64,000 bases of DNA from an archaeon 13_2_20CM_2_53_6 (lineage in GTDB: Archaea > Thermoproteota > Bathyarchaeia > 40CM-2-53-6). This document shows positions 10,872 to 64,000 of the stretch, one piece after another. A program made the translations under genes and the position numbers. Positions within the stretch are counted from its first letter, which is position 1, and every line of letters begins with the position of its first letter. Under the pieces are notes generated by a model. The model made no database searches. It worked only from the letters and a program-made list of their open reading frames with translations, and had not been told where the DNA came from. The stretch spans positions 1,264-65,263 of the forward strand of contig MNDT01000019.1 of the NCBI GenBank assembly GCA_001915065.1, read 5' to 3'.

Positions 10872-10955
10872 CACCCGCTGATGCAACGAGTCCTTGAATG
10901 CCTATTCTTGCCGTAGAGTCTAGACTCACAGGCCCGGAAGACTCGATAGACCTAG

Positions 10956-11210
10956 TTATCGTCCCAGAGTCAATAGTCTACCGAGAGTTGTTGCTTGGAT
11001 CATGCTCTTGCCGCGGTCTCCTCTCCTGACCTCTACGAGTCCGAGGTCAACGAGGCCCTGAGAATCTTCCGCTCCTTGAATATGATAGCTCAGCAAGGGC
11101 TTACCATAGCCGGTCAGCTCTCTGAGCTCCTCTAAGCTTTCCACTTCTCCACCCTTCTTCTGCAATGCGTTTAGGGATGTCCAGCTTTGTCTGTGAAACC
11201 AGTCTGTCAT
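10956..11210 (-). CDS. Small winged-helix protein (possible C-terminal half of a Csa3/HFX_2341-like regulator)
   Basis: LEELRELTGYGKPLLSYHIQGAEDSQGLVDLGLVEV is wHTH-like. It is in the same frame as 11220..11528, separated by one TGA plus 3 codons. Confidence 0.5.
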   Translation of the reverse strand: MTDWFHRQSWTSLNALQKKGGEVESLEELRELTGYGKPLLSYHIQGAEDSQGLVDLGLVEVRRGDRGKSMIQATTLGRLLTLGR

Positions 11211-11219
11211 AACTGAACT

Positions 11220-11528
11220 TCAGCACCGGCAACAACAGCTCTCCTTCTCTTTTCTCAGTATCCCGGCGACCCCCTCCAACACATGGGTCAGAACATCATT
11301 ATTGGGAACGGCATGGGTCTCCACCTCCACCTTCAAGACGGATGATAGGTCCGCGGTCAGCTTCTGCGCGATCTGCTTATCGGATTCTAGATGAATCAGG
11401 TAGAGCTTGTGAACAGGAAGGGTTCTAATCCCGACAAGGACTGAATCTGTGTCCGGTCCCAGAGTGGCGATCTGCAAAGTATGCTTCGGCATTAGAGATC
11501 TTAACCCAGGGCGGACCATACAACTCAC
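11220..11528 (-). CDS. Rossmann-like CARF/HFX_2341-N-like domain protein
   Basis: HTLQIATLGPDTDSVLVGIRTLPVHKLYLIH... resembles the N-terminal domain of Csa3/HFX_2341-type archaeal regulators. The likely start is the internal MPKHTL. Confidence 0.4.
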   Translation of the reverse strand: MSCMVRPGLRSLMPKHTLQIATLGPDTDSVLVGIRTLPVHKLYLIHLESDKQIAQKLTADLSSVLKVEVETHAVPNNDVLTHVLEGVAGILRKEKESCCCRC

Positions 11529-11817
11529 GATTTATCCTTACTGGGACCTCGTCCTAGATAGTCTCCGCGGCGCTCTTGATTTGTACCCTACCTCGAACGG
11601 TTGGACCTATCCCTGCATGCACTGGATCTCGTAGAGAGGCGAGTGCTCTCACAATTCGGTTCACGGGCGAATTGTTTGGCTAGTCCCGAATCGTACCCTC
11701 TACGATCCGATCCCTGCTCACTGGGAGGTTGCTTCGGCAAGCAATGGATTGACTGAGACAGACTGACTTGGCAATACCTCAAATTGACAACTCGATCAGA
11801 CATCGTCTGAACAAGCA

Positions 11818-12375
11818 TTGAAAGTTGCAAATCTCGTAGTCCCACTTGTTCTACTAGCAGCTCTATCATTGTTTGGACCCGTTTCACCGGCAGCGGCCGA
11901 CAGAGGCCCACGAATGTACCAGTTCCTGGTCGGGAGTGGCCTCCTTTGCGACCTAGCTCCGGACGCCTGCCCTGACATTTCGATGGCTTCCAACGGTGAT
12001 ACCGTCAGCGTAAGCGGTGGCGGGACCTTCAGTCTCGCTCCCTTCGGGGCCACTGGTACCGGCAGTTTCATCCACAAATCCGCCTCGGGAGACGTTAGGG
12101 CCGAAGGATCATGGGTGGTACTAAGATTGCTGGCCTTCCATTCTTTCGGTGATGCGACGCCGCAGGGACTGCCTTCCAATCTTGAGGGAGGTCAGCTTGT
12201 CCTCCTCGTTCAGCTTCAGGTCAACGGGACTCCCGTGTTTAATGCGATCCTTAATGTGGACTGCGAACTAGGAACCCCACCGCCTGGGCAGAGCGAAGGA
12301 TTTGCCCTCAGCGTTCAGAACGCTCTCAACTTCAACAAGAAACTCAGCGGCTTCACAGTCTTCATCCGAACCTAA
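11818..12375 (+). CDS. Secreted protein of unknown function
   Basis: Signal peptide KVANLVVPLVLLAALSLFGPVSPAAA. TTG start. Confidence 0.55.
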   Translation: MKVANLVVPLVLLAALSLFGPVSPAAADRGPRMYQFLVGSGLLCDLAPDACPDISMASNGDTVSVSGGGTFSLAPFGATGTGSFIHKSASGDVRAEGSWVVLRLLAFHSFGDATPQGLPSNLEGGQLVLLVQLQVNGTPVFNAILNVDCELGTPPPGQSEGFALSVQNALNFNKKLSGFTVFIRT

Positions 12376-12862
12376 GCTGTAGTGCAAGCCCACTCTAACC
12401 CCTCTTTTTTCCTTGTAAGGTAGGAGAGTAAGCGAATTAGCACAAGCGGAAAATTAACCACGCAACGACTTGCTGGCGCCGAGTGCGAGAACAGAGCCGA
12501 AATACGAAAGGCGAAGAATGAACCCCAATCGCATCTGTCGGGAGCGTCCTGTTTTGACGCTATTCTCTTCCGTGTGGTTATCGTTCCTACAACCTCTGAC
12601 CGGCGCATTCCGAGCCGCGAGCAGTCGGATCCCACAAAAACCGTTACCTGCCGAAACTCTCCGGCAAAAATCTAGAAATTGCAGATGATCCTCGCGACAA
12701 AATAGTGTTCTTTGAGGCCTAGAGGGCCTAATCCGGACTCGGAGCATTCAGATCAGTACCTTCAGCTAGCCAATCTTTGCCTGGCAAGATCTACGATCTG
12801 CTGAAGGCTCCCCTTCCACCCACTGCCGGGCTTAAATCCGAATCCGCTGATCGTGGGAGAAT

Positions 12863-13549: not shown

Positions 13550-14019
13550 CCATCATATCATACAGGTCCCATCTCTCGTGGCCGGGGGCGCGAGACACAC
13601 AGATCAGCACAAATGCAACCACACATTTCAGACGTTTCCTCAAAATAATGAGCACTCCTGTACGTGGAGGTTATCAGCGCGGCTGTGGAATATTACGGTA
13701 GGAGGACGGAGGTAGGTTGCTACGGCGGAGAGAAGGAATATTGTCCTTGAGGTAGACCTAGCCCGACCCGTCCGGTCTGACGAGCTTGCCGAGAGGTTGT
13801 TGCGGACCGCCCTAGATCTGTCAGTGGTGATCGTGAGGACAGAGAAGGGACCTTTGCTAGGCTTTCGTCTCGGTCAGAGAACGTTCCTATACCTGGGCGA
13901 GGTCGTTGACCATCTCAAGTCGATAGAATGCGCTAGCCTGAGAGGCTAGACCCGAGGGTCTAGCGCAACATATGCGTGGGAGGGGCGTGCTTAGGCTGAG
14001 ACAGTCCTGCTTCTGGGCC

Positions 14020-14724: not shown

Positions 14725-15159
14725 TCAGGGGGCGACGATTATTTCTGCTCTCATCCAGAGAGGATGGAAGTTACAGTGGTACTTGTAGACTCCGGGAGTG
14801 GTGAGCTGGACGAAGAAAGTATTACCGCTGTCCAGTTCTCCCGAATCAAACTTGGTCGCTCCGGGAGGGACCGATGTAGCGGTGGCAGTGTGGGGAGAGT
14901 CGTCAAGGTTCTTCCACTGGACGAAGTCACCCGGCTTGATGGTCACGTTCGACAAATGAAAGTTCAGCAAGCCGCTAACCGAGACTCCAAAAGGGATGTC
15001 CACGCAGGTGGCGGTCGGGCTTGGACAGACGATGGGCTTCGGCTTTGCAGGAAATACCAGCACGTAGAACATGGAGCCGCCGAGGGCAAGTCCTATCAGG
15101 AGGAGAGCCGAGAGGATAGCAGTGTCCGGCTGATACGCGGAGGAGGCCAATCTTCTCAC
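14725..15159 (-). CDS. Membrane-anchored type-1 copper cupredoxin, last gene of the oxidase operon
   Basis: SPHTAT ... YKYHCNFHPLWM (C-x2-H-x3-M). It abuts the subunit IV-like gene. Confidence 0.85.
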   Translation of the reverse strand: MRRLASSAYQPDTAILSALLLIGLALGGSMFYVLVFPAKPKPIVCPSPTATCVDIPFGVSVSGLLNFHLSNVTIKPGDFVQWKNLDDSPHTATATSVPPGATKFDSGELDSGNTFFVQLTTPGVYKYHCNFHPLWMRAEIIVAP

Positions 15160-15435
15160 CTAGTGTCCTATCGACCCCAAGGCAAGCACTACAGCCAGTA
15201 CTGCGAAGAAGAGCGAGGCAGCGGCGATACCGACGATTCCACGGGGCTCATACTTGAGGCGCAGGAATACCATGGCCACGGCGAGGATCTGGCTCGCAGC
15301 GAGTGCTGCGATGGCTATGTTAGCGTAGATCGTGGTTAGGCTTAGAAGGTTCTTCGCGAGCGCCCATTCCAAGAGAGATGCAGCAACCAGGTAGGACCAG
15401 ACCGCTATCGGGGTTGTGTTTTGCATTTTTCTCAC
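15160..15435 (-). CDS. Small 3-TM oxidase subunit (prokaryotic subunit IV-like)
   Basis: 91 aa with 3 TM helices. It overlaps the subunit I/III stop by 4 nt and has a QILAVAMVFLRLKYE motif. Confidence 0.55.
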   Translation of the reverse strand: MRKMQNTTPIAVWSYLVAASLLEWALAKNLLSLTTIYANIAIAALAASQILAVAMVFLRLKYEPRGIVGIAAASLFFAVLAVVLALGSIGH

Positions 15436-17759
15436 AGCAAGTAGAAGAGGGGGAAGATGAGGAGCCAGACGCTGTTCACGAAAGACCAGTATAGGTTGAA
15501 GTTCTCCACAGTCCCATAACGTTCGGCTGAGAAGCCGCCGGTTGCCGCCCTCTTCATCAGATAGATGATCAGCAAGAGTCCGGCAAGGACATGAGCGCCG
15601 TGTATCCCGGTCGTGACGAGGTAGCTGCTCACAGGTAGCCCAATTGGCGAGCCGGGCACCAAGTTAGCTATGAGACCATACCACTCGCTTCCCTTTACCC
15701 CGAGGGAAATGAGTCCCAGCAGAAAAGTCGCTCCCAGCCAGCCGATCAGGCCTCGCCTGTTACCCGCCTTTATCGATTGAAGCCCGAGATAGGCCGTCAG
15801 GCTGCTCGTGATGACGATGAGGGTGTCGACAGTTCCAAAATTGATGTCGTGAAGAACCCCCGGGGCTGGCCAGTAAGGAAAGTTGACTCTAATGAACGCG
15901 TAGCTTCCCAAGAGGACGCCGAAGAGAACCGCCTCGGACCCGAGAAAGGTCCACATGGCTAGCTTGTCCTTCGGAACCCTGCTGAAGGGCCACCGTTCTC
16001 CCTCGGGCTCTTCTGGCAGCCTGAACTTGCCGCGGTAGTCATCCCAGGCCCATCCGCCAACCCCCCAGGCGAGAACGGCGAGACCAATGATGATGACTGG
16101 AAGGCCGAATGCTAGGCCTGCCATACTGACAGCGAAGCCGAGGCAGAGAAGTATCGGGCGGGTACTGAGAGGACTAACCTCGTGAGCGGATTCGGATGCC
16201 GAGTGGGATACACCGTTGCCCAGGCCGTTGCCTAAGCCGTTTCCCAGTACACTAGTCGGACCGCCGGTCCCATGGGGCATGGTCGTCCCGCTCGTCCATT
16301 CTCTATCTGTCGAATTCCAGGGATTTGCGGGGGCAGGCGGACCCTTCAGGGTCTTTAGCATGTTGTAGACGAGGAGTATCTGGGACGGGATGAAGATGTA
16401 TGCTCCCACCGTCGCGACGAAGTTTGCCGGAGCCCACGCCGCTACGTTGTAGGTAACGATACGCCTCGGCATGTCTTCCAGATAGAACATTGGGAAGAAG
16501 ATGAGGTTGAACCCGACGAAGGAGAGTATGAAATGCGTCTTTCCAAGGGTCTCGTTATACATCCGTCCAGTCATCTTGGGCAGCCAGTAGTAAATTCCCG
16601 CGAACAGGCCGAACTCCGAGGCTCCGACCATCACGTAGTGAAAGTGTGCTACGACAAAATACGTGCCTCTGAGGGCAATGTCCAGCGCCAGTGATGAGTT
16701 GAAGACGCCTGAGAGTCCGCCGATGACGAATATGACGACGGAGCCCAGCGCGAAGAGCATCGGGGTGGTGAGTCTGATCGCTCCCCTGTACATTGTTCCT
16801 ATGAAGGACAGCATCAGAATGCCGAATGGGACTGAGATCGTCTCTGTGTTGATGGTGAAGACCTCTCGCTCTGTCAGGCTTATCCCCGTCAAGAACATGT
16901 GATGACCGTAGACCATGTAGCTCAACAGTACGACAATTCCGACGGCGGCGAACAACGGCTTCCTCGCGTAGACTGGTCGTCCGGAGAAGGTTGCGATTAT
17001 GCCGGCTACTATGCCGAACGCGGGCAGGAGGACGATGTAGACTTCGGGATGGCCAAAGAACCACCAGACGTGGTCCCAGAGGATCGAGCCTCCGGCTGTG
17101 GAGGTGAAGAAGGAGGTTCCGAGAAGCCGGTCGGCCTCGAGCATTATTAGACCTGCGATGAGGGAGGGGAAGGCCCAGAGAAACTGGAGCATCGTCCAGA
17201 AGGTGAACATTGTAAACATTGGCAGCTTGACGAAGCTGACACCGGCCGCTCTGTGCCAGAGGATTGTGACGAGTATGTTCACGGTGCCGACGGTGTTCGA
17301 TGCGGCTAGGACTATGAGGGCCGCGGCTCCCAACGTCTCGCCGGACCCGGGGCTGAACTGGAGCGAGGTGAGGGGAGAATAGTTCGTCCATCCTGAGGCC
17401 GGAGATCCTCCGGGAACGAAGAAGCTGACAAAAGCGGTTATCCCGCTGAAGACATACATCCAGTAGCTCGTAGCGTTGAGCCGGGCAAAAGCGACGTCGG
17501 CAGCCCCTATCTGGAGAGGAACGAAATAGTTTGCAAAGGCAATTCCCAATGGCGACAGGAACCAGAGTACCATGATCAGACCATGCATCGTAACCGCCTC
17601 ATTGTACTGCGGGGGCTGAAGGAAGGTCTCAGACGGGACAGCGAGCTGGGTCCGCATAAGAAAAGCGAGAATCCCTGCCAAGAAGGCGAAGTAGAACGAT
17701 GTTACCAAGTAGAGGATTCCGACCTCCTTGTGGTTGGTTGTGAAGAGCCATCTCTTCAA
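15432..17759 (-). CDS. coxAC: Heme-copper oxidase subunit I fused to subunit III (A-type)
   Basis: TNHKEVGILYL, WFFGHPEVYI (CuB His plus cross-link Tyr), HHMF, and VAHFHYVM. A (GNGL)3 linker is followed by a 5-7 TM subunit III-like C-terminus. Confidence 0.92.
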   Translation of the reverse strand: MKRWLFTTNHKEVGILYLVTSFYFAFLAGILAFLMRTQLAVPSETFLQPPQYNEAVTMHGLIMVLWFLSPLGIAFANYFVPLQIGAADVAFARLNATSYWMYVFSGITAFVSFFVPGGSPASGWTNYSPLTSLQFSPGSGETLGAAALIVLAASNTVGTVNILVTILWHRAAGVSFVKLPMFTMFTFWTMLQFLWAFPSLIAGLIMLEADRLLGTSFFTSTAGGSILWDHVWWFFGHPEVYIVLLPAFGIVAGIIATFSGRPVYARKPLFAAVGIVVLLSYMVYGHHMFLTGISLTEREVFTINTETISVPFGILMLSFIGTMYRGAIRLTTPMLFALGSVVIFVIGGLSGVFNSSLALDIALRGTYFVVAHFHYVMVGASEFGLFAGIYYWLPKMTGRMYNETLGKTHFILSFVGFNLIFFPMFYLEDMPRRIVTYNVAAWAPANFVATVGAYIFIPSQILLVYNMLKTLKGPPAPANPWNSTDREWTSGTTMPHGTGGPTSVLGNGLGNGLGNGVSHSASESAHEVSPLSTRPILLCLGFAVSMAGLAFGLPVIIIGLAVLAWGVGGWAWDDYRGKFRLPEEPEGERWPFSRVPKDKLAMWTFLGSEAVLFGVLLGSYAFIRVNFPYWPAPGVLHDINFGTVDTLIVITSSLTAYLGLQSIKAGNRRGLIGWLGATFLLGLISLGVKGSEWYGLIANLVPGSPIGLPVSSYLVTTGIHGAHVLAGLLLIIYLMKRAATGGFSAERYGTVENFNLYWSFVNSVWLLIFPLFYLL
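16213..16248 (-). repeat. 3 x 12-nt in-frame tandem repeat encoding (GNGL)3 at the subunit I / III fusion joint
   Basis: Plus strand reads CCGTTGCCCAGG CCGTTGCCTAAG CCGTTTCCCAGT. Confidence 0.8.
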
Positions 17760-37933: not shown

Positions 37934-38656
37934 TTACTCGTCGGCGGCTCGGACAACGAGTATCATTCTCTCCTGGGACTCGCTAATCATGACCTCAGAG
38001 GGGGGCATCCCTGGCTCACGAGTCCGCAGATTGTCCAAGTCGATCTCCACGCCTGTTCCTCCCTTGGCCGCCATCTCCGACAGTCCACATGTTAGACCTC
38101 CACCGCCGAGGTCTTTCATTCCCTGAACAAGGCCCGCGTCAACGGCCTCGAGGACCGCTTCAATGATCAGTTTCTTGATGAACGGATCAGGAACCTGGAC
38201 AGCGGATCTCTCGGTGTCCGACTTTTCGCTCAGGGTTCGACTGGCGAAGCTGGCCCCGCGAATCCCATCGCGACCCGTGCTGCCACCGACAACATAAACT
38301 GAATCGCCAGGGTGACGGGCTTCTGCAAGGACAAGCTTGTTCTTGCGGCCGAGTCCGAGGCAGACGACATCCACCAGACAGTTCCTCTCGAAGGACTGGT
38401 CGAATTCCAATTCTCCTCCAACGGTTGGAACCCCTATGCAGTTTCCATAATCGCCTATTCCCCGGACGACATTGTCGAAGAGCCAGCGGCTGTGGCTGCT
38501 GTTGAGGCTGCCGAATCGTAGAGGGTCGAGTAGCGCGATGGGCCGAGTTCCTAGCGCGAGAATGTCTCTAACGACACCTCCAACGCCGGTGGCGGCACCG
38601 CCGTAGGGGTCTATGGCGCTGGGGTGATTGTGAGACTCGATGTGTAGTGTTGCCAC
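37934..38656 (-). CDS. purL: FGAM synthase II, N-terminal/central part
   Basis: [73 protein letters not shown], and [12 protein letters not shown]. It ends at a TAA in frame with 36677..37837. Confidence 0.88.
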
Positions 38657-38777
38657 CCAGCCGTTGCCGAGGTTGATGACTCCGGCATCATATCCGGGTC
38701 CGACAAGGACCCTAGCTTCTTGACGGCGTAACGAATCTCCTCGTCGGTCAGATTCGGCTTTTGAACTTGGACGACGG

Positions 38778-58204: not shown

Positions 58205-59161
58205 TTGTCGGTCGCAAAGGCCACAACCGTCCGTGCCAAGTCTCGCGGTAGAGACTCGAAGGTTACGCTGTCAAAGTATTCGTTTCGAGTGAAATATCTC
58301 CGCAAGAGTCGGGAGATACTGCGGCGTTTCAACGAAACGAAGCCCTGGCTTGACCAGCTCTACACGACATTTCTCGGTTTGAGACCGGGAATGACGATGG
58401 TGGACGTGGGATGTGGAACGGGAGATTTCACACGACGCTTAGCTACACTCTCGAAAGGGAGGAGCGAGGTTATTGGAATCGATTCTAATGCTGATGGTAT
58501 TGCTGCTGCCGTCGCCGACACCAACCACAACCGCCTCTCGAAGATGATATCCTACAGGGTTGGAGACGCGTACAAGATTCCCCTCGACGACGAGTATGCA
58601 GACCTTACTTGTTGCCGCAGTCTACTGATCCATCTAACTGATCCCTTGAAGGCGGTAAAGGAGATGGTGCGCGTTACAAAGAATCATGGATCGGTTGCTG
58701 CTCTAGAGAGTGGAAGGATGAGCGTGTTCTTCGACCCGAACGACGAGAGCTACAGTGAACTCTTCGACCAAGTGCAGGATGCCTTGTTTGACGGGATCAG
58801 AAAGCTTGAGGGAAAACATATCAGAATCGGCGATAGACTACCAGGAATCTTCCAGGCAGCTGGTCTCACCGGTATCAAAGCAGAAATCCAGGCGGACGGC
58901 TGGCTGTACACGGACCCTAGAAGAAGACTGGCCGATCTCAGACAACAATTGAGGTTTGATCTCTCAATGCTCGAGGCGAGATCCAAGATCGATAGGAAAT
59001 ACTTGATCGCAGGAGGAATGACAGACGCTAGAATCAACGCGTACAATCGGCAAACCATGGCAAAGACGAAAATGCTATTGTCCGACGACAAGAAGCTTCG
59101 GAATGATCCAAGCCTTTACGCAGCAAGCCTCTTCCTTGTCTCAGGAACAAAGATAGCCTAG
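58205..59161 (+). CDS. Class I SAM-dependent methyltransferase
   Basis: MVDVGCGTGDFTRRLA ... VIGIDSN ... DLTCCRSLLIHL. Confidence 0.8.
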   Translation: MSVAKATTVRAKSRGRDSKVTLSKYSFRVKYLRKSREILRRFNETKPWLDQLYTTFLGLRPGMTMVDVGCGTGDFTRRLATLSKGRSEVIGIDSNADGIAAAVADTNHNRLSKMISYRVGDAYKIPLDDEYADLTCCRSLLIHLTDPLKAVKEMVRVTKNHGSVAALESGRMSVFFDPNDESYSELFDQVQDALFDGIRKLEGKHIRIGDRLPGIFQAAGLTGIKAEIQADGWLYTDPRRRLADLRQQLRFDLSMLEARSKIDRKYLIAGGMTDARINAYNRQTMAKTKMLLSDDKKLRNDPSLYAASLFLVSGTKIA

Positions 59162-59546
59162 ACATAACGTCGCCTTTTCGGACCCGATAATGTCTATGCT
59201 GCGGGTCTCTGGACAGCCCGGGTGACAGGGAATTCTGAAAACACCCCGACAACAGTCTACTACCATATCGTTGCGCTAGGAAGCACGCGACCAGTAATAT
59301 CGTCCACCAGGTCGGTCGTCTTCACTGACAGATACCAGGCGTATGGACAGGACAACTCAGCGTCAGGAACCGATACCTGCCGGTTCACCAACAAACATGT
59401 TAGCCAACACATCTTAATGACCGCATCGCCTGTCTCACACTTGCCCGACACTCTCGACGCAAATATCGTTAAATATTCAGCGGCTGGCTAACCCGTTAGC
59501 TGGCTTTGTTCGTCATCATGTTCCTCAAGGTTAGCGAGATCTTGTT

Positions 59547-60143
59547 GTGATCTGCCGAGAAAAACGCGTACGGTTGGCCCTTCCGGGCCGTAGAGCCAGA
59601 GTAGCATCAAGGGTTTCAAAGGGACTCTTATTCACTCTCCTAACACTCCTAAGCATCGTGCCCGGACTTCCCGCAATTGCAGGAAACACTTCCGCTTCAG
59701 GCCAGATCAATCCGATTCGAGGTACACTCGGCCTAGGAGGCCAATCACAAGGTCCTCTGAAGGTTGGATCTAATCCCGTAACTAGCCTTTCCCTTCCGGG
59801 GAACGTGCTTTCTACCGTCGCCGCCTCAAGCGCTGCAGCAACGGTCCTACAATCGTCACCCAGCAACCTTACTCTAGAAACTCGGGGCTTGGTGTTAAGG
59901 CTGCTAGGTGGCAGCGCTCCGCATGATGAGCTACTGAATCGAAACCATGAGATTCTCAGTTCTTGGTCTACTTGGCGTGTGGAAGCTCAAACGGCTGGCT
60001 CCTGGATTCCTCTAGAGCCAAGGCTGACCAATTTTACGGTGCTCGGAGCTAATGCTAATGATACATACGTGATCAGAACAATGCAGGTAGGGTCTCCGGC
60101 ACAATCTGGGAGAATTGAGGATATTCTACAAGGTGATGCCTGA
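59547..60143 (+). CDS. Signal-peptide-bearing protein. It is either a separate leader gene or the out-of-frame N-terminus of the RHS protein.
   Basis: KGLLFTLLTLLSIVPGLPAIAG signal peptide. Its stop overlaps the ATG of the next ORF. Confidence 0.5.
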   Translation: MICREKRVRLALPGRRARVASRVSKGLLFTLLTLLSIVPGLPAIAGNTSASGQINPIRGTLGLGGQSQGPLKVGSNPVTSLSLPGNVLSTVAASSAAATVLQSSPSNLTLETRGLVLRLLGGSAPHDELLNRNHEILSSWSTWRVEAQTAGSWIPLEPRLTNFTVLGANANDTYVIRTMQVGSPAQSGRIEDILQGDA

Positions 60144-63100
60144 CGGTTCTTTGAAATGGGATCTGCAGTTTGACAGTAGAAGTGCGGGTTTTTATCGCCT
60201 TGTCTATGAGTGGCGAAATGTCACGAGCAATCGCCAGCTGAACGAGCCGTTGAAGAGGTTGCGAGTAAATTACGCTGGCTCAAACTTTACCTTTTCTTGG
60301 GCAGATATTCCCAGAGGATTTGATGTGACCTCAAGCATCTTTCACGACCAGTTTATTCTTTCTGTAAACCTCGGAGGATTGGCACCCGGTGTTCCGGTTG
60401 AGGTCGATCCTTACCTTGTGGGAAGCAGTAGTTTCTATTGGGCGACATCTACTTCTCAGCGAAGGGTCTTCTACGATCCGATCGGGGGTTACTATTGGGT
60501 CTTCTACGATGATGGGTCGGGGTTGACCTATCGATACTCTTCCGATGGGAAGAGCTGGAATCAGGGATGCGACATCCTTGGATGTGGTTGTAGTGGATAT
60601 CAATCGTGCGTACCCGGCACTTTCAATAATGATTCGGACATCTCCGTTTTCGGCCAGAATGTAATTGTTGCGAAAGGGGGACAGGCAACTGTCAGCTCAT
60701 ACCCAGGGGACGTTAAACAGTTCCTATACCTATCGTTATCTGTTAGCTACTTGATCGGGACGATATCTGGCTCCAATATTTCCTGGAGTTCACTTCAAGC
60801 TGCGGGCCGAGAAATCGTTTTCTGTCTACCGAACTGCTACTCGCTCGGAGCTGGAATAAGAGATGTTTCCGTCTATGTCGCTCCTACGGGCCGGCCATTG
60901 TTTTCTTACAACTTGTGGTACAACTATTACCCTTCGAACGACACTGACACATGCCCGCAGGGTGGCTCGACTACCTACTCCTACAGCGCCCTCAAGGTCT
61001 CCTATGTCAACGGTACAGGGTATTGGAAAAACAAAGAGATATTCAATGACAATAACGCACCCCTACCCAGTGGGCAGGAAGGATACTGCTACAGGTTCGA
61101 CCAGAACGATATTGCGAGGTCCATAATCCTCCCCTCAGATTCTCAAGGCGGATTTCGAGTCTTATACCAACAGCCGACTCATACGTACGGTAGTAGCGCG
61201 CCTTACAGTGTAAGCAACAGCTGGGTCCAGTTGGAATCTTATCTCAACGCAACGGGTTCCGTAGAGACCATCCCTGGAAACATCTACAATCTTGGAGCGA
61301 GTACCAGCCCTCCAGGAGGGCTAGGCAGCCCCGAGTTCTCAGCTGTTGCAGACGGAGACTATGGTACCCACGTCGTCTACCGGGCCTCCTCCGGGACGGT
61401 GACCTACCAGTATCGTCCTGTATCAGGCTCTTGGACCGGTTCGACTGATCTGTTCACGGGTCAGGCGTCGGACCCAACTATCTCTGTGGACTACTCTAAC
61501 AATGACGTGTACGCTTTCGCCCTGCAAGGCTCCGCGATAACAATGAGGGTGAAGCGGTCGGGCCAGTCATGGACGACCCAAACCCTTCCCGTAACCGGTA
61601 GGACGAATAATCCTCAATATCTCGGCTCCAGCTACTCCGCAGCCAGCGGGACCGCTTCAGGTCGTATATCACTGGTATGGACTGAGACGAACCCGTCTGC
61701 ATACTCGGTGGAATACGCGGGCATCCCCATCATGTCAGCATGGTCCCCATTTGCCTCCCCCACTGACCCTTGGGACGGCAATGGCATAGTTCCTTTCGGA
61801 GAGTATTTTGCTAATCTCGGCGAGTCCGTGTCGCCCAGTAACGGCATGCTGACTCTTAGCCAGACAGATCTCAGCGTTCCCGGTCGCGGCCTCAGCCTTG
61901 AAATTACAAGGAATTATGTTGAGCCTTACAGCCTCTGGAAGGGAAACCCGTACAATTACGAGAGCTATCCATGGGCCCCACTAGGCAATGGTTGGCAGCT
62001 CAACTTTCCTTGGCTAAATTACTCCAGTCCTCTCTATATCCATCTGTGGAATGGCGAGGGATACCGGATACCAGCGAGCTTCTGGAATGGCGGCTCAGGA
62101 ACCTTTGAAAACCATCAGGGAGAAAGCTTTCTCGCTACGAGGAACGCTGGCGGAATATTTCTTAATACTACTTCTGCAATCACCTACAGATTCGATCCAA
62201 ACAACTACAGGCTCACAAGCATCACGGATTCCACGGGTAATCGGATCCAACTTTACTACAATGTCAGCAATCAGATTGGTTGTGTGTTAGATACCCTGGG
62301 CAGGGGATTCAACTTCAGCTATTCGAACGGGCTACTCCAGAGCATTGGCGAGTACTCGGGTTGCCATAGCAGTAGCCTTGTAAGAACGGTTCTCTACAAC
62401 TACTCTGGGCAAAATCTCGTCTCCGTCACCGATCCTGCCGGGAGAATTACTAGCTATCTCTACCAGGCAGGCCCCTGGCTTCTGACCAGAGTCACATACC
62501 CTACTGGCTGGTATACGAACTTTACTTTTGCTCCCTTCAGGCTCGGAACAGAAGACCTTGTCTACTCCTGGAGGGTCTCCCACCAGACCGTCCTTGCCTC
62601 AACAGTATCCCAGATACGCCGTTTCGACTATAGTTATACCCAGGGTACCGGCGACGAAGTAACATCATCTGAGGTCAAGACCTACAATGGGACCAGCTTG
62701 ACTGGCTATACGGACTATGCTTTCTCGTACGCAGGCATGGTGCGGAATGTATCAGACGCCAACCATTCACTCGTGAGCGGTGTCCAACGCCTTTTCGACG
62801 GTCGTGGAGAAGTTATCACGGAGACATTTTTGGTGACCGACGGGGGCTCGCCACCTAAGATTGGAAGCTACACCAACACTTATCGCTACGACCTCTGGGG
62901 TAATCGCATCTACAGCCATACAATAATAAATCCCACTACAAACGTGTATCATGACAGCTTTGGCGCATTCTACAACGATAAGCTTCCTCTAGGCTTCTAC
63001 TACTTCGCTGATACCTTTAGTGACCGTAATGGTCAGGCGACGGACAACGCGGGATGGACAATGAGATCCTTCTGCCTTCCATGTCCAGCTCAAAATCCTG

Positions 63101-64000
63101 TTCAGACCATGAATGCGACAAATGGCTGGTTGCACTTTCATGTTATCGGGACTCTAGGCTTCAATTTTTACAGTCCCCAGCTTCCCATAGCTGGTAGCTA
63201 TTCTCACTGGAATGTAGCCTTCAACTGGAAGGCCGGCTCTGACGTTGCAAACTCTACAGTGCCTAACCTCATCTTCTCTCTCCAAACAAACCATGTAAGT
63301 CTCGAAATCAGTCCACTGGCTCGGCCTGGCATGGGCACAAGCCAGGCGGGTTCGTATTCGGCGGATCTCGCTTCAACTATCAACTCTCTCATCAATCCTC
63401 CGTATAACGCCACATGGGTCGAGTTGAACTGGAACATAAAAGGCGAATCCTTCAACAATGGACAAACGGGCGATCTAGCCAACGTAATGGTCTCCACGGG
63501 GACCAACTTCTCCAACGCTTTCTTGAATGGTAGCCCAGGACCCAGTATTCACCGAGCTTTGGCTGGGGCGGTTGAGTACCAGAATGGGACTGGCACGCTG
63601 CCCATTGAGACTTACTGCAACTACTCCTCCTGGGGCGGACTTCTCTCAATCAAGCAGCGCTATGACACGTCCAGCGGCACTCAGTGGCCTGCCATCTCTT
63701 ACACGTATGACCAGTTCGGCAACCCATCGTCCGTCACCAATACGGAGGGAAACCGAACCTACTTCACGTACTCCTCAAGATACCAGAACGCCTATCTAAC
63801 AAACGTCACTCAACGGGTAATCCCGGGGAACGTTCAGACTACAAGACTGTACAACTACGACGTCTACACTGGCAACAAACTGTCCCAAGCGGACCCCAAC
63901 GGTTCAAACACCACCTACAAGTACGATGTCCTGGGTCGAGTCACCAGAGTGGTGTATCCTCTCAGCCTAGGCTACGTCAACTTCACCTACAACGACTCTG
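60136..64000 (+). CDS. Very large BNR/sialidase-like propeller + RHS/YD-repeat protein; 3' end beyond the window
   Basis: Own translation of frame 1 is open from 60091 to 64000. It shows BNR-like SSDGKSW and KRSGQSW, the RHS core entry motif SVSPSNGMLTLSQTDLSVPGRGLSLEITRNY (about 61825), and YD repeats such as YRFDPNNYRLTSITDSTGNRIQLYY and YKYDVLGRVTRVVYP. It is not in the ORF track because it is edge-truncated. Confidence 0.85.
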   Translation, partial: MPDGSLKWDLQFDSRSAGFYRLVYEWRNVTSNRQLNEPLKRLRVNYAGSNFTFSWADIPRGFDVTSSIFHDQFILSVNLGGLAPGVPVEVDPYLVGSSSFYWATSTSQRRVFYDPIGGYYWVFYDDGSGLTYRYSSDGKSWNQGCDILGCGCSGYQSCVPGTFNNDSDISVFGQNVIVAKGGQATVSSYPGDVKQFLYLSLSVSYLIGTISGSNISWSSLQAAGREIVFCLPNCYSLGAGIRDVSVYVAPTGRPLFSYNLWYNYYPSNDTDTCPQGGSTTYSYSALKVSYVNGTGYWKNKEIFNDNNAPLPSGQEGYCYRFDQNDIARSIILPSDSQGGFRVLYQQPTHTYGSSAPYSVSNSWVQLESYLNATGSVETIPGNIYNLGASTSPPGGLGSPEFSAVADGDYGTHVVYRASSGTVTYQYRPVSGSWTGSTDLFTGQASDPTISVDYSNNDVYAFALQGSAITMRVKRSGQSWTTQTLPVTGRTNNPQYLGSSYSAASGTASGRISLVWTETNPSAYSVEYAGIPIMSAWSPFASPTDPWDGNGIVPFGEYFANLGESVSPSNGMLTLSQTDLSVPGRGLSLEITRNYVEPYSLWKGNPYNYESYPWAPLGNGWQLNFPWLNYSSPLYIHLWNGEGYRIPASFWNGGSGTFENHQGESFLATRNAGGIFLNTTSAITYRFDPNNYRLTSITDSTGNRIQLYYNVSNQIGCVLDTLGRGFNFSYSNGLLQSIGEYSGCHSSSLVRTVLYNYSGQNLVSVTDPAGRITSYLYQAGPWLLTRVTYPTGWYTNFTFAPFRLGTEDLVYSWRVSHQTVLASTVSQIRRFDYSYTQGTGDEVTSSEVKTYNGTSLTGYTDYAFSYAGMVRNVSDANHSLVSGVQRLFDGRGEVITETFLVTDGGSPPKIGSYTNTYRYDLWGNRIYSHTIINPTTNVYHDSFGAFYNDKLPLGFYYFADTFSDRNGQATDNAGWTMRSFCLPCPAQNPVQTMNATNGWLHFHVIGTLGFNFYSPQLPIAGSYSHWNVAFNWKAGSDVANSTVPNLIFSLQTNHVSLEISPLARPGMGTSQAGSYSADLASTINSLINPPYNATWVELNWNIKGESFNNGQTGDLANVMVSTGTNFSNAFLNGSPGPSIHRALAGAVEYQNGTGTLPIETYCNYSSWGGLLSIKQRYDTSSGTQWPAISYTYDQFGNPSSVTNTEGNRTYFTYSSRYQNAYLTNVTQRVIPGNVQTTRLYNYDVYTGNKLSQADPNGSNTTYKYDVLGRVTRVVYPLSLGYVNFTYNDS

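Follow-up and report, generated by a model that had tools for sequence, protein, structure and literature searches.

The window analysed here, a stretch of 64,000 nucleotides (nt) from archaeon 13_2_20CM_2_53_6, ends inside a gene on the forward strand that encodes a giant protein with RHS/YD repeats. In the preliminary description, made from the letters of the window, the gene was taken to be an open reading frame (ORF) that starts at 60136 and continues past the window edge. The frame proved to be open over all 1,288 codons up to the edge, which at ~51% G+C is not a chance event, and all of the peptides quoted from it are present. The start at 60136 was not borne out, and the gene begins ~560–590 nt further upstream, at either GTG 59547 or TTG 59574. 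The upstream ORF on the same strand (59547–60143) encodes 198 amino acids (aa), with a charged stretch followed by a hydrophobic N-terminus, and its stop codon overlaps the ATG at 60136. The nearest homologs (39–43% identical) are colinear through this ORF and the large one, and the two frames fuse once one base is removed at TCTGGGAGAA. We conclude that the window carries the 5′ 60% of one RHS gene of ~2,530 residues. It comprises a 5′ part (59547–60110), which encodes a charged n-region, a hydrophobic segment (~59622–59684) and the beginning of an N-terminal domain whose fold is unassigned, and a main body in the frame described earlier (60112–64000), which runs off the window and has an intact ortholog of 2,533 aa. 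The 5′ part is colinear with the N-termini of the homologs P0001, P0002, P0003 and L003, the last of these being an intact, distant Bathyarchaeia homolog of 2,581 aa.

The gene was followed beyond the window in 17 further loci of the same species, which were reached in NCBI, ENA and JGI via the downstream ORF and are ~99.95% identical to the window. The JGI contig Ga0209056_10008115 (L005) was found by an exact-match scan; it shares the final 301 nt of the window without a mismatch. Because L005 carries two internal deletions relative to all other assemblies, L012 (GCA_001920575.1; 2,533 aa) was chosen as the full-length reference. Across 59101–64000 the window and L012 differ by a single extra G in the window, and residues 179–1475 of L012 were 100% identical to the window in a tblastn search with the full-length protein. 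The extra G lies at the frameshift site (60108–60110), which reads GGG in the window and GG in all 12 other same-species assemblies covering it (TCTGGAGAATTG in these, TCTGGGAGAATTG in the window), and it gives rise to the stop at 60141–60143 and to the apparent ATG start at 60136. In nine of the 12 the gene is a single uninterrupted ORF of 2,505–2,542 aa, depending on the start chosen, followed by an ORF of 341 aa. A programmed frameshift or other recoding at 60108 was considered and rejected, since the 12 assemblies without the G read straight through. A second frameshift near extended coordinate 64750 was likewise rejected as a defect of L005 only, outside the window. The L005 deletions lie in the YD/Hint-like region at extended coordinates ~64449 (165 nt, in frame) and ~64750 (~197 nt, out of frame) and represent either repeat collapse or a real deletion variant.

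The shell entry motif quoted in the preliminary description is Pfam DUF6531 (PF20148; 2.7e-5, 24.9 bits against a cutoff of 24.1), which precedes the YD repeats (SVSPSNGMLTLSQTDLSVPGRG...) and occupies 61819–62007 (ORF residues 562–624). The RHS/YD repeats claimed for the ORF were recovered with both PF05593 (4.8e-12; 46 bits, cutoff 22) and TIGR01643 (4.8e-12). A first stretch of YD-repeat shell (62008–63047), colinear with the homologs and covered by RHS_repeat and YD_repeat matches, is followed by an inserted variable domain (63048–63451), where the tblastn alignment breaks between residues 1195 and 1359 of L003. The shell then resumes (63452–64000, with repeats at ORF residues 1187–1275) and continues for ~3.2 kb past the window, or ~1,060 further codons in the intact ortholog. 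In the full-length ortholog, RHS_repeat (PF05593) matched eight stretches with an E value of 1.5e-42 and YD_repeat (TIGR01643) gave 1.8e-32, and the Rhs_assc_core profile TIGR03696 matched residues 2220–2299 over its entire length (positions 1–76 of 76; 6e-18, 65.1 bits against a cutoff of 32.5). Solved bacterial Rhs structures (8h8a, 8qja, 7q97, Tse5, Tre23 and Tse15) matched the same protein at 6e-33 to 2e-13. The core ends in ...WYDPTIGRFISQDPDPG...TGITDPSGM, and the same sequence is present in the contig that continues the window. In characterised Rhs proteins, paired DPxGL aspartyl-protease motifs precede the cleavage site, and the core end of the archaeal protein corresponds to these motifs.

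Two inserts interrupt the shell of the archaeal protein. The one at 63048–63451 gave no match in Pfam and is unrelated in sequence to the inserts found at the same position in L003, P0001 and P0003; as judged from these comparisons, it represents a second variable region besides the toxin tip, and it may be involved in target recognition. A further shell insert with a weak PA14 match (0.002) was seen in P0001. The other insert, of ~150 aa and Hint-like, lies ~0.8 kb past the window end (7605–8102 of L012, residues ~1735–1900). It had no Pfam match; in phmmer searches of PDB sequences it matched 4o1r_A ('Replicative DNA helicase', 142 aa), which we take to be a DnaB mini-intein, with an E value of 0.0058 over 129 residues, and a bacterial intein-like (BIL) domain with an E value of 1.2. 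When its catalytic blocks were compared by eye with the intein consensus, they looked degenerate: Ser1 was present, TxxH read DxxP and HN read PD. The tblastn alignment to L003 breaks at this insert, and nothing similar was seen in L003.

The preliminary description had predicted that a core plug, a variable toxin domain and a small downstream ORF would lie just beyond the window, and all three were found there in the near-identical contigs. The last ~110 residues of the protein contain GLAFE, IPD, EAK and RQI, which are conserved in P0148, P0150 and P0152. Zhang et al. gave GxxxE, IxD, ExK and Q as the signature of Tox-REase-7, a domain found on RHS proteins, and all four elements are thus present in the tip. 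The Tox-REase-7 profile PF15649 was the top or sole Pfam match for four homologous tips, with overlapping C-terminal parts of the profile aligned in each (~positions 13–84): that of L003 (E 4e-5, 24.2 bits), that of P0150 (E 0.023, 15.4 bits), that of P0152 (E 0.026, 15.2 bits) and that of the present species (E 0.071, 13.8 bits). Since the scores are below 25 bits, we state that the tip resembles Tox-REase-7 and do not claim membership of the family. Searches of the tip against PDB sequences gave chance-level matches only. On the basis of its motifs and profile matches, the tip is a predicted PD-(D/E)xK nuclease.

In all assemblies there is a 4-nt overlap between the 341-aa ORF and the stop of the RHS gene. 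The only family match of this ORF was a weak zinc ribbon (CxxC...CxxC) at its C-terminus; its matches among PDB sequences were at chance level, and none of the known Imm families in Pfam matched the downstream ORFs. Comparison of the related loci was more informative. The shell and core are common to five related species, whereas the tips that follow DP[ST]G[ML] are unrelated. An ORF is adjacent downstream in all loci, and in 3 + 3 loci the family to which it belongs changes together with that of the tip. The family of the 341-aa ORF accompanies REase-like tips in three loci (7e-13, 4e-22 and 6e-10). In L003 both the tip (5e-8) and the downstream ORF (7e-13) are homologous, and downstream of the main gene in L001 there is an orphan core/tip cassette (10901–11749 and 11773–12669, with an in-frame stop) whose tip is weakly similar to that of L003 (6e-4) and whose next ORF is homologous to the 341-aa protein (4e-22); the similarity of this orphan tip to the tip of the present species was not significant. 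L001, L002 and L004 have main tips without any relationship to the REase-like ones, each with an unrelated small ORF behind it. In L004, a glycine-rich, membrane-like tip is paired with a multi-pass membrane protein. Pfam searches with the alternative tips and the alternative downstream ORFs returned nothing.

Among environmental relatives, at least three different tips stand behind one pre-toxin module, which consists of ...AWNGLTTAGTDIQNGWNSLSPEEQQG and hydrophobic helices, and a core remnant was found downstream of the main gene in L003 (17917–18123). Varying tips, co-varying ORFs, orphan cassettes, a shared pre-toxin module and core remnants are hallmarks of Rhs loci. The pattern of tips and ORFs across loci is the strongest evidence that we have for a toxin–immunity pair, and it leads us to take the 341-aa ORF as the candidate cognate immunity protein. 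Between its methyltransferase gene and the RHS gene, the window contains a decayed RHS C-terminal shell/core fragment (59186–59407, forward strand), which is conserved in the sister assemblies and matched residues 2176–2245 with 51% identity over 75 aa (tblastn, E 1e-12). It looks like what is left of a previous RHS copy or of a cassette that was displaced.

Hydropathy analysis of the 2,533-aa protein revealed only two hydrophobic segments, at residues 13–37 and at residues 2344–2381, just after DPSGM. The N-terminal one is conserved in the distant homologs, and its sequence is signal-peptide-like, suggesting export of the Sec type. The N-terminal 187 aa had no Pfam match, PAAR, VgrG, LXG and WXG included; these four were likewise not matched in the full-length protein by Pfam or NCBIfam, and neither the protein nor the flanking genes gave a match to PAAR/prePAAR, vgrG, hcp or eagR in the two databases.

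The first part of the ORF had been described as a BNR/Asp-box β-propeller. The BNR/Asp-box assignment failed: Pfam BNR had no match at E ≤ 0.1 in the window ORF, and a motif scan for the canonical Asp-box S-x-D-x-G-x-T-W found none even in a relaxed form, the nearest strings being SSDGKSW, which is one residue short, and SGQSW. The more general assignment to the propeller fold held, at the level of a low-confidence model. An AlphaFold2 model of ORF residues 1–560, built from six sequences, had a predicted local distance difference test score (pLDDT) of 53 and a predicted template modelling score (pTM) of 0.60 and was all-β, with ~24 strands between residues 110 and 485. When it was compared with the PDB by Foldseek, the best 50 of 71 matches at E ≤ 0.001 were all propellers, although with template modelling (TM) scores of only 0.17–0.48; they included PLL/PHL lectins (5e-8), fucose lectins, GH43 arabinanases and sialidases. 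Within the limits of such a model, the best matches were the seven-bladed PLL/PHL lectins and GH43 enzymes, and sialidases first appeared at rank 16, with target-normalised TM-scores of 0.25–0.37. The model thus points to a probable β-propeller of about six four-stranded blades at 60448–61605, and the N-terminal module is likely to have this fold. It is possible that the propeller is a target-binding module.

A profile made from the N-terminal alignment gave nothing meaningful among PDB sequences. An exhaustive HMMER search found the N-terminal module in 143 representative clusters at E ≤ 1e-3, including 47 at E ≤ 1e-30. Proteins of 2,100–2,830 aa with the module at the same N-terminal position were frequent among the best matches, and all cluster members with an organism name were from Candidatus Bathyarchaeota. 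On this distribution, the propeller module is specific to the present archaeal family.

The genome had been judged archaeal-looking, and this was confirmed by exact protein matches in metagenome-assembled genomes (MAGs) named archaeon 13_2_20CM_2_53_6, Crenarchaeota archaeon and Candidatus Bathyarchaeota archaeon. The closest homologs of the RHS gene lie in Bathyarchaeia contigs of 0.26–1.05 Mb, adjoining eIF-5/eIF-2B and DUF424 genes, which we read as archaeal-type neighbours. In independent assemblies the gene order is methyltransferase, RHS gene, 341-aa ORF, tyrosine recombinase and, where the contig reaches that far, purH. The comparison of composition that had been proposed earlier was carried out. 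The RHS gene had a GC content of 0.51–0.52, against 0.544 ± 0.025 for 41 background ORFs, and a third-codon-position GC content (GC3) of 0.58, against 0.615 ± 0.048; its codon-usage distance was 0.38–0.50, compared with 0.79 on average for the 14 background ORFs of more than 300 aa. The GC3 of the toxin tip was 0.49, which is below that of any background ORF; low GC3 is usual for Rhs C-terminal tips. As the composition is within the range of the contig and the synteny is conserved, a chimera or a recent transfer appears unlikely, whereas an ancient bacterial origin of the gene is plausible.

The tyrosine recombinase gene (11048–12157 of L012, reverse strand), ~3.7 kb past the window end, matched Phage_integrase at 3.9e-6 and, weakly, XerA_Arch. 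It stands directly after the RHS–immunity pair and is convergent to it. In L019 and L020, ORFs of 231 aa and 62 aa are called where the other loci show a recombinase of 320–369 aa. Elsewhere in the window, at 15432–17759 on the reverse strand, a 775-aa ORF encodes heme-copper oxidase subunit I (COX1, 3e-126) fused with subunit III-like and IV-like regions, which implies aerobic respiration in this soil Bathyarchaeota lineage.

Taken from the N-terminus, the protein consists of a signal-peptide-like segment, a domain of unassigned fold, a probable β-propeller, DUF6531 and the YD shell with its inserts, followed by the RHS core ending in DPSGM, a hydrophobic pre-toxin module and the predicted PD-(D/E)xK tip. 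We consider it likely that this ~2,530-aa protein is an RHS polymorphic toxin of a soil Bathyarchaeota archaeon that is exported by a Sec-type route, independently of a type VI secretion system (T6SS). What can be read directly from the sequences is how the domains are ordered, that a protease core is present, that the tips are polymorphic, that the neighbouring ORF co-varies with them, and that PAAR, VgrG and TcA are lacking. By analogy with Rhs proteins and WapA, the protein would be exported through Sec, its YD cocoon would enclose the C-terminal toxin, and the cleavage that follows DPSGM would be the work of the aspartyl-protease core. Binding of the neighbouring cell may fall to the propeller and the inserted shell domain, the hydrophobic module may aid the passage of the nuclease across the target membrane, and the PD-(D/E)xK tip would then cleave DNA, while sibling cells would be protected by the 341-aa protein.

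Several observations weigh against this interpretation. The gene is interrupted in the present assembly and a second 5′ indel allele (+GG) occurs in three others, so that some cells may make no exported toxin at all, and the ORF start chosen by some gene callers lies downstream of the hydrophobic segment. The two DP motifs at the core end are 22 residues apart and not 17, as in characterised Rhs proteins; the N-terminal autocleavage motif of T6SS Rhs proteins (D-P-V...G-E) is not conserved and reads E-S-V-S-P-S-N-G. All PF15649 scores are under the curated 25-bit cutoff (the best being 24.2), and the AlphaFold2 model of the tip, with a pLDDT of 45, was unusable and was not used for a fold search. 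Secretion, cleavage, nuclease activity and immunity are all deduced by analogy.

The interruption itself can be explained in two ways. In our view the extra G is probably not characteristic of the gene and reflects either an error made in assembly or consensus calling or a rare allele. It was present in only one of 13 assemblies, and apart from it the ORF is identical to the intact allele. In addition, the purL gene on the same contig (36680–38806, reverse strand) has defects unique to this assembly: an in-frame TAA at 37936–37934, where six sister assemblies have GAA, and ~100 nt missing together with small indels near 38711–38720. Two sister assemblies that cover the whole of purL have an intact gene of 738 aa. 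Since purL is broken in this assembly alone, consensus errors in this MAG are suggested. If the G were real, the gene would be a true pseudogene here, with the signal peptide uncoupled from a 2,345-aa remainder, no exported toxin, and the immunity function alone retained. We regard this as rather unlikely, but the extra G is there in the deposited sequence, and loss-of-export alleles seem to segregate: L009, L014 and L015, which come from different samples and two assemblers, share a 5′ indel (GGG to GGGGG, at the equivalent of 59584) that leaves no start codon upstream of the hydrophobic segment and that may be an export-null allele of natural origin. A 1-nt homopolymer deletion is present as well in each of the distant homologs L001, L002 and L004 (8126–8135 in an A4 run, 13921–13927 in a T4 run and 15004–15010 in a G5 run, respectively), and ORFs split on single contigs occur in other clusters too. 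The deletions in L001, L002 and L004 represent either errors or frequent inactivation.

The other alternatives concern what the protein does and where it comes from. Teneurins use YD shells for adhesion and signalling, and a propeller ahead of a YD shell is reminiscent of their layout; the present protein could therefore be a non-toxic surface protein, that is an adhesin or a teneurin-like YD shell with a C-terminal region devoid of killing function, and indeed no known toxin family passes its Pfam cutoff. This is highly improbable, given the full aspartyl-protease RHS core, the hypervariable tips that swap downstream of DPxG[LM] together with a co-varying next ORF, the orphan cassettes and the PD-(D/E)xK signature residues. 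Nor do we find it at all probable that the protein is a TcB/TcC cocoon of the Tc-toxin type, dependent on a TcA translocator and directed at eukaryotic targets. The YD cocoon with an attached propeller and the aspartyl-protease core are alike in the two, and salivary-gland SGS proteins were among the weak PDB matches, but no TcA-like Pfam domain was found on the flanks of the 12 sister loci (up to ~2.4 kb upstream and 10 kb downstream), the protein is a single polypeptide with its own N-terminal signal, and it is in inter-microbial toxins that a nuclease tip is typically combined with a neighbouring immunity gene. Finally, the RHS gene could be bacterial DNA that was misjoined to an archaeal contig or transferred very recently from a bacterium, an explanation to which we attach hardly any weight. 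Points in its favour are that, as Zhang et al. argue, the polymorphic toxins of archaea are of bacterial origin, that the locus is closely followed by a tyrosine recombinase gene, and that the tip has its exceptionally low GC3. Against this, the order methyltransferase–RHS–341-aa ORF–recombinase recurs in independent assemblies, the GC, GC3 and codon usage of the shell are inside the range of the contig, every organism-named cluster among the 143 with the N-terminal module is from Bathyarchaeota, and the homologs are only 38–45% identical across five archaeal species, indicating long residence.

Granted that the locus encodes an exported RHS toxin, a more far-reaching interpretation can be put forward tentatively. 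The protein could be a lineage-specific platform that works independently of any secretion system, in which the propeller, the swappable insert and the pre-toxin module are new receptor-binding and translocation modules, the downstream ORF belongs to a new immunity family, and frameshifts in G runs switch export off in part of the population. If this were true, it would mean killing of archaea, or of bacteria, by an archaeon. Antagonism by archaea is poorly documented, and the locus makes available a whole system, small in size and open to testing, from a soil lineage that is abundant and uncultured. Its parts, as predicted from sequence, are an RHS shell for secretion, a well-marked autoproteolytic boundary, a short nuclease-like tip, a candidate gene for immunity and natural tip variants. 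From it one might learn how a cell with a surface layer (S-layer) but without a T6SS delivers a toxin, and with it the known repertoire gains new toxin, immunity and pre-toxin modules.

A catalogue of archaeal polymorphic toxin systems was reportedly drawn up by Makarova et al. in 2019. RHS toxins had been called rare and uncharacterised in archaea; they are indeed rare there, and according to a 2021 paper no polymorphic toxin of an archaeon had by then been characterised experimentally. RHS polymorphic toxins were described computationally in Methanosarcina acetivorans by Zhang et al. (2012), and archaeal RHS toxins are therefore not new as a class; those proteins were predicted only, and they belong to a phylum other than that of the soil Bathyarchaeota. 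A homolog of the present protein is named 'RHS repeat domain-containing protein [Candidatus Bathyarchaeia archaeon]' by NCBI, and our literature search found no paper linking Bathyarchaeota with RHS toxins. The known partners of Tox-REase-7, ImmHEAT, Imm23 and Imm54, are replaced here by an unrelated family of 260–340 aa.

Teneurins and TcB carry propellers, and like the archaeal protein, teneurins and TcB–TcC combine a YD cocoon with a β-propeller. They differ in that the archaeal propeller is N-terminal to DUF6531, in that its cargo is a predicted nuclease with a candidate immunity gene, and in that the archaeal locus has neither a TcA partner nor a teneurin-type transmembrane anchor. The T6SS Rhs effectors, such as Rhs1/Tre23 of P. 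laumondii (7pq5), Tse5 of P. aeruginosa (8cp6), Tse15 and a Vibrio Rhs protein (8h8a), have a homologous shell and core and the same DPxG[LM] aspartyl-protease boundary before a variable toxin. Unlike them, the archaeal protein and its flanking genes had no PAAR, VgrG or EagR-type match in Pfam or NCBIfam, and the N-terminal cleavage motif is not conserved in the archaeal protein. The archaeal protein is also ~1,000 residues longer (2,533 aa against 1,065–1,879 aa for the matched PDB chains) because of its N-terminal modules and shell inserts.

WapA of Bacillus subtilis, an antibacterial RHS/YD-repeat toxin that depends on Sec and not on a T6SS, has a Sec signal, a YD shell and core, repeats that bind the cell wall and a downstream immunity gene. 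Its toxin is a tRNase. As is predicted for the archaeal protein, an N-terminal Sec-type signal takes the place of PAAR/VgrG, the YD shell is combined with an RHS core, and a polymorphic C-terminal nuclease is followed directly by the immunity gene, for which the archaeal locus has a candidate. The wall-binding repeats of WapA serve a Gram-positive wall, whereas the archaeal protein has a Pfam-unmatched domain and a probable propeller instead, and it further differs in its tip, which resembles Tox-REase-7 and not a tRNase, in its extra shell inserts and in its archaeal host. The N-terminal modules, the pre-toxin module and the immunity family are without family assignment. Thus, the locus represents a Bathyarchaeota-specific form of a known type of RHS toxin, with the architecture of bacterial Rhs proteins and WapA and not a new principle.

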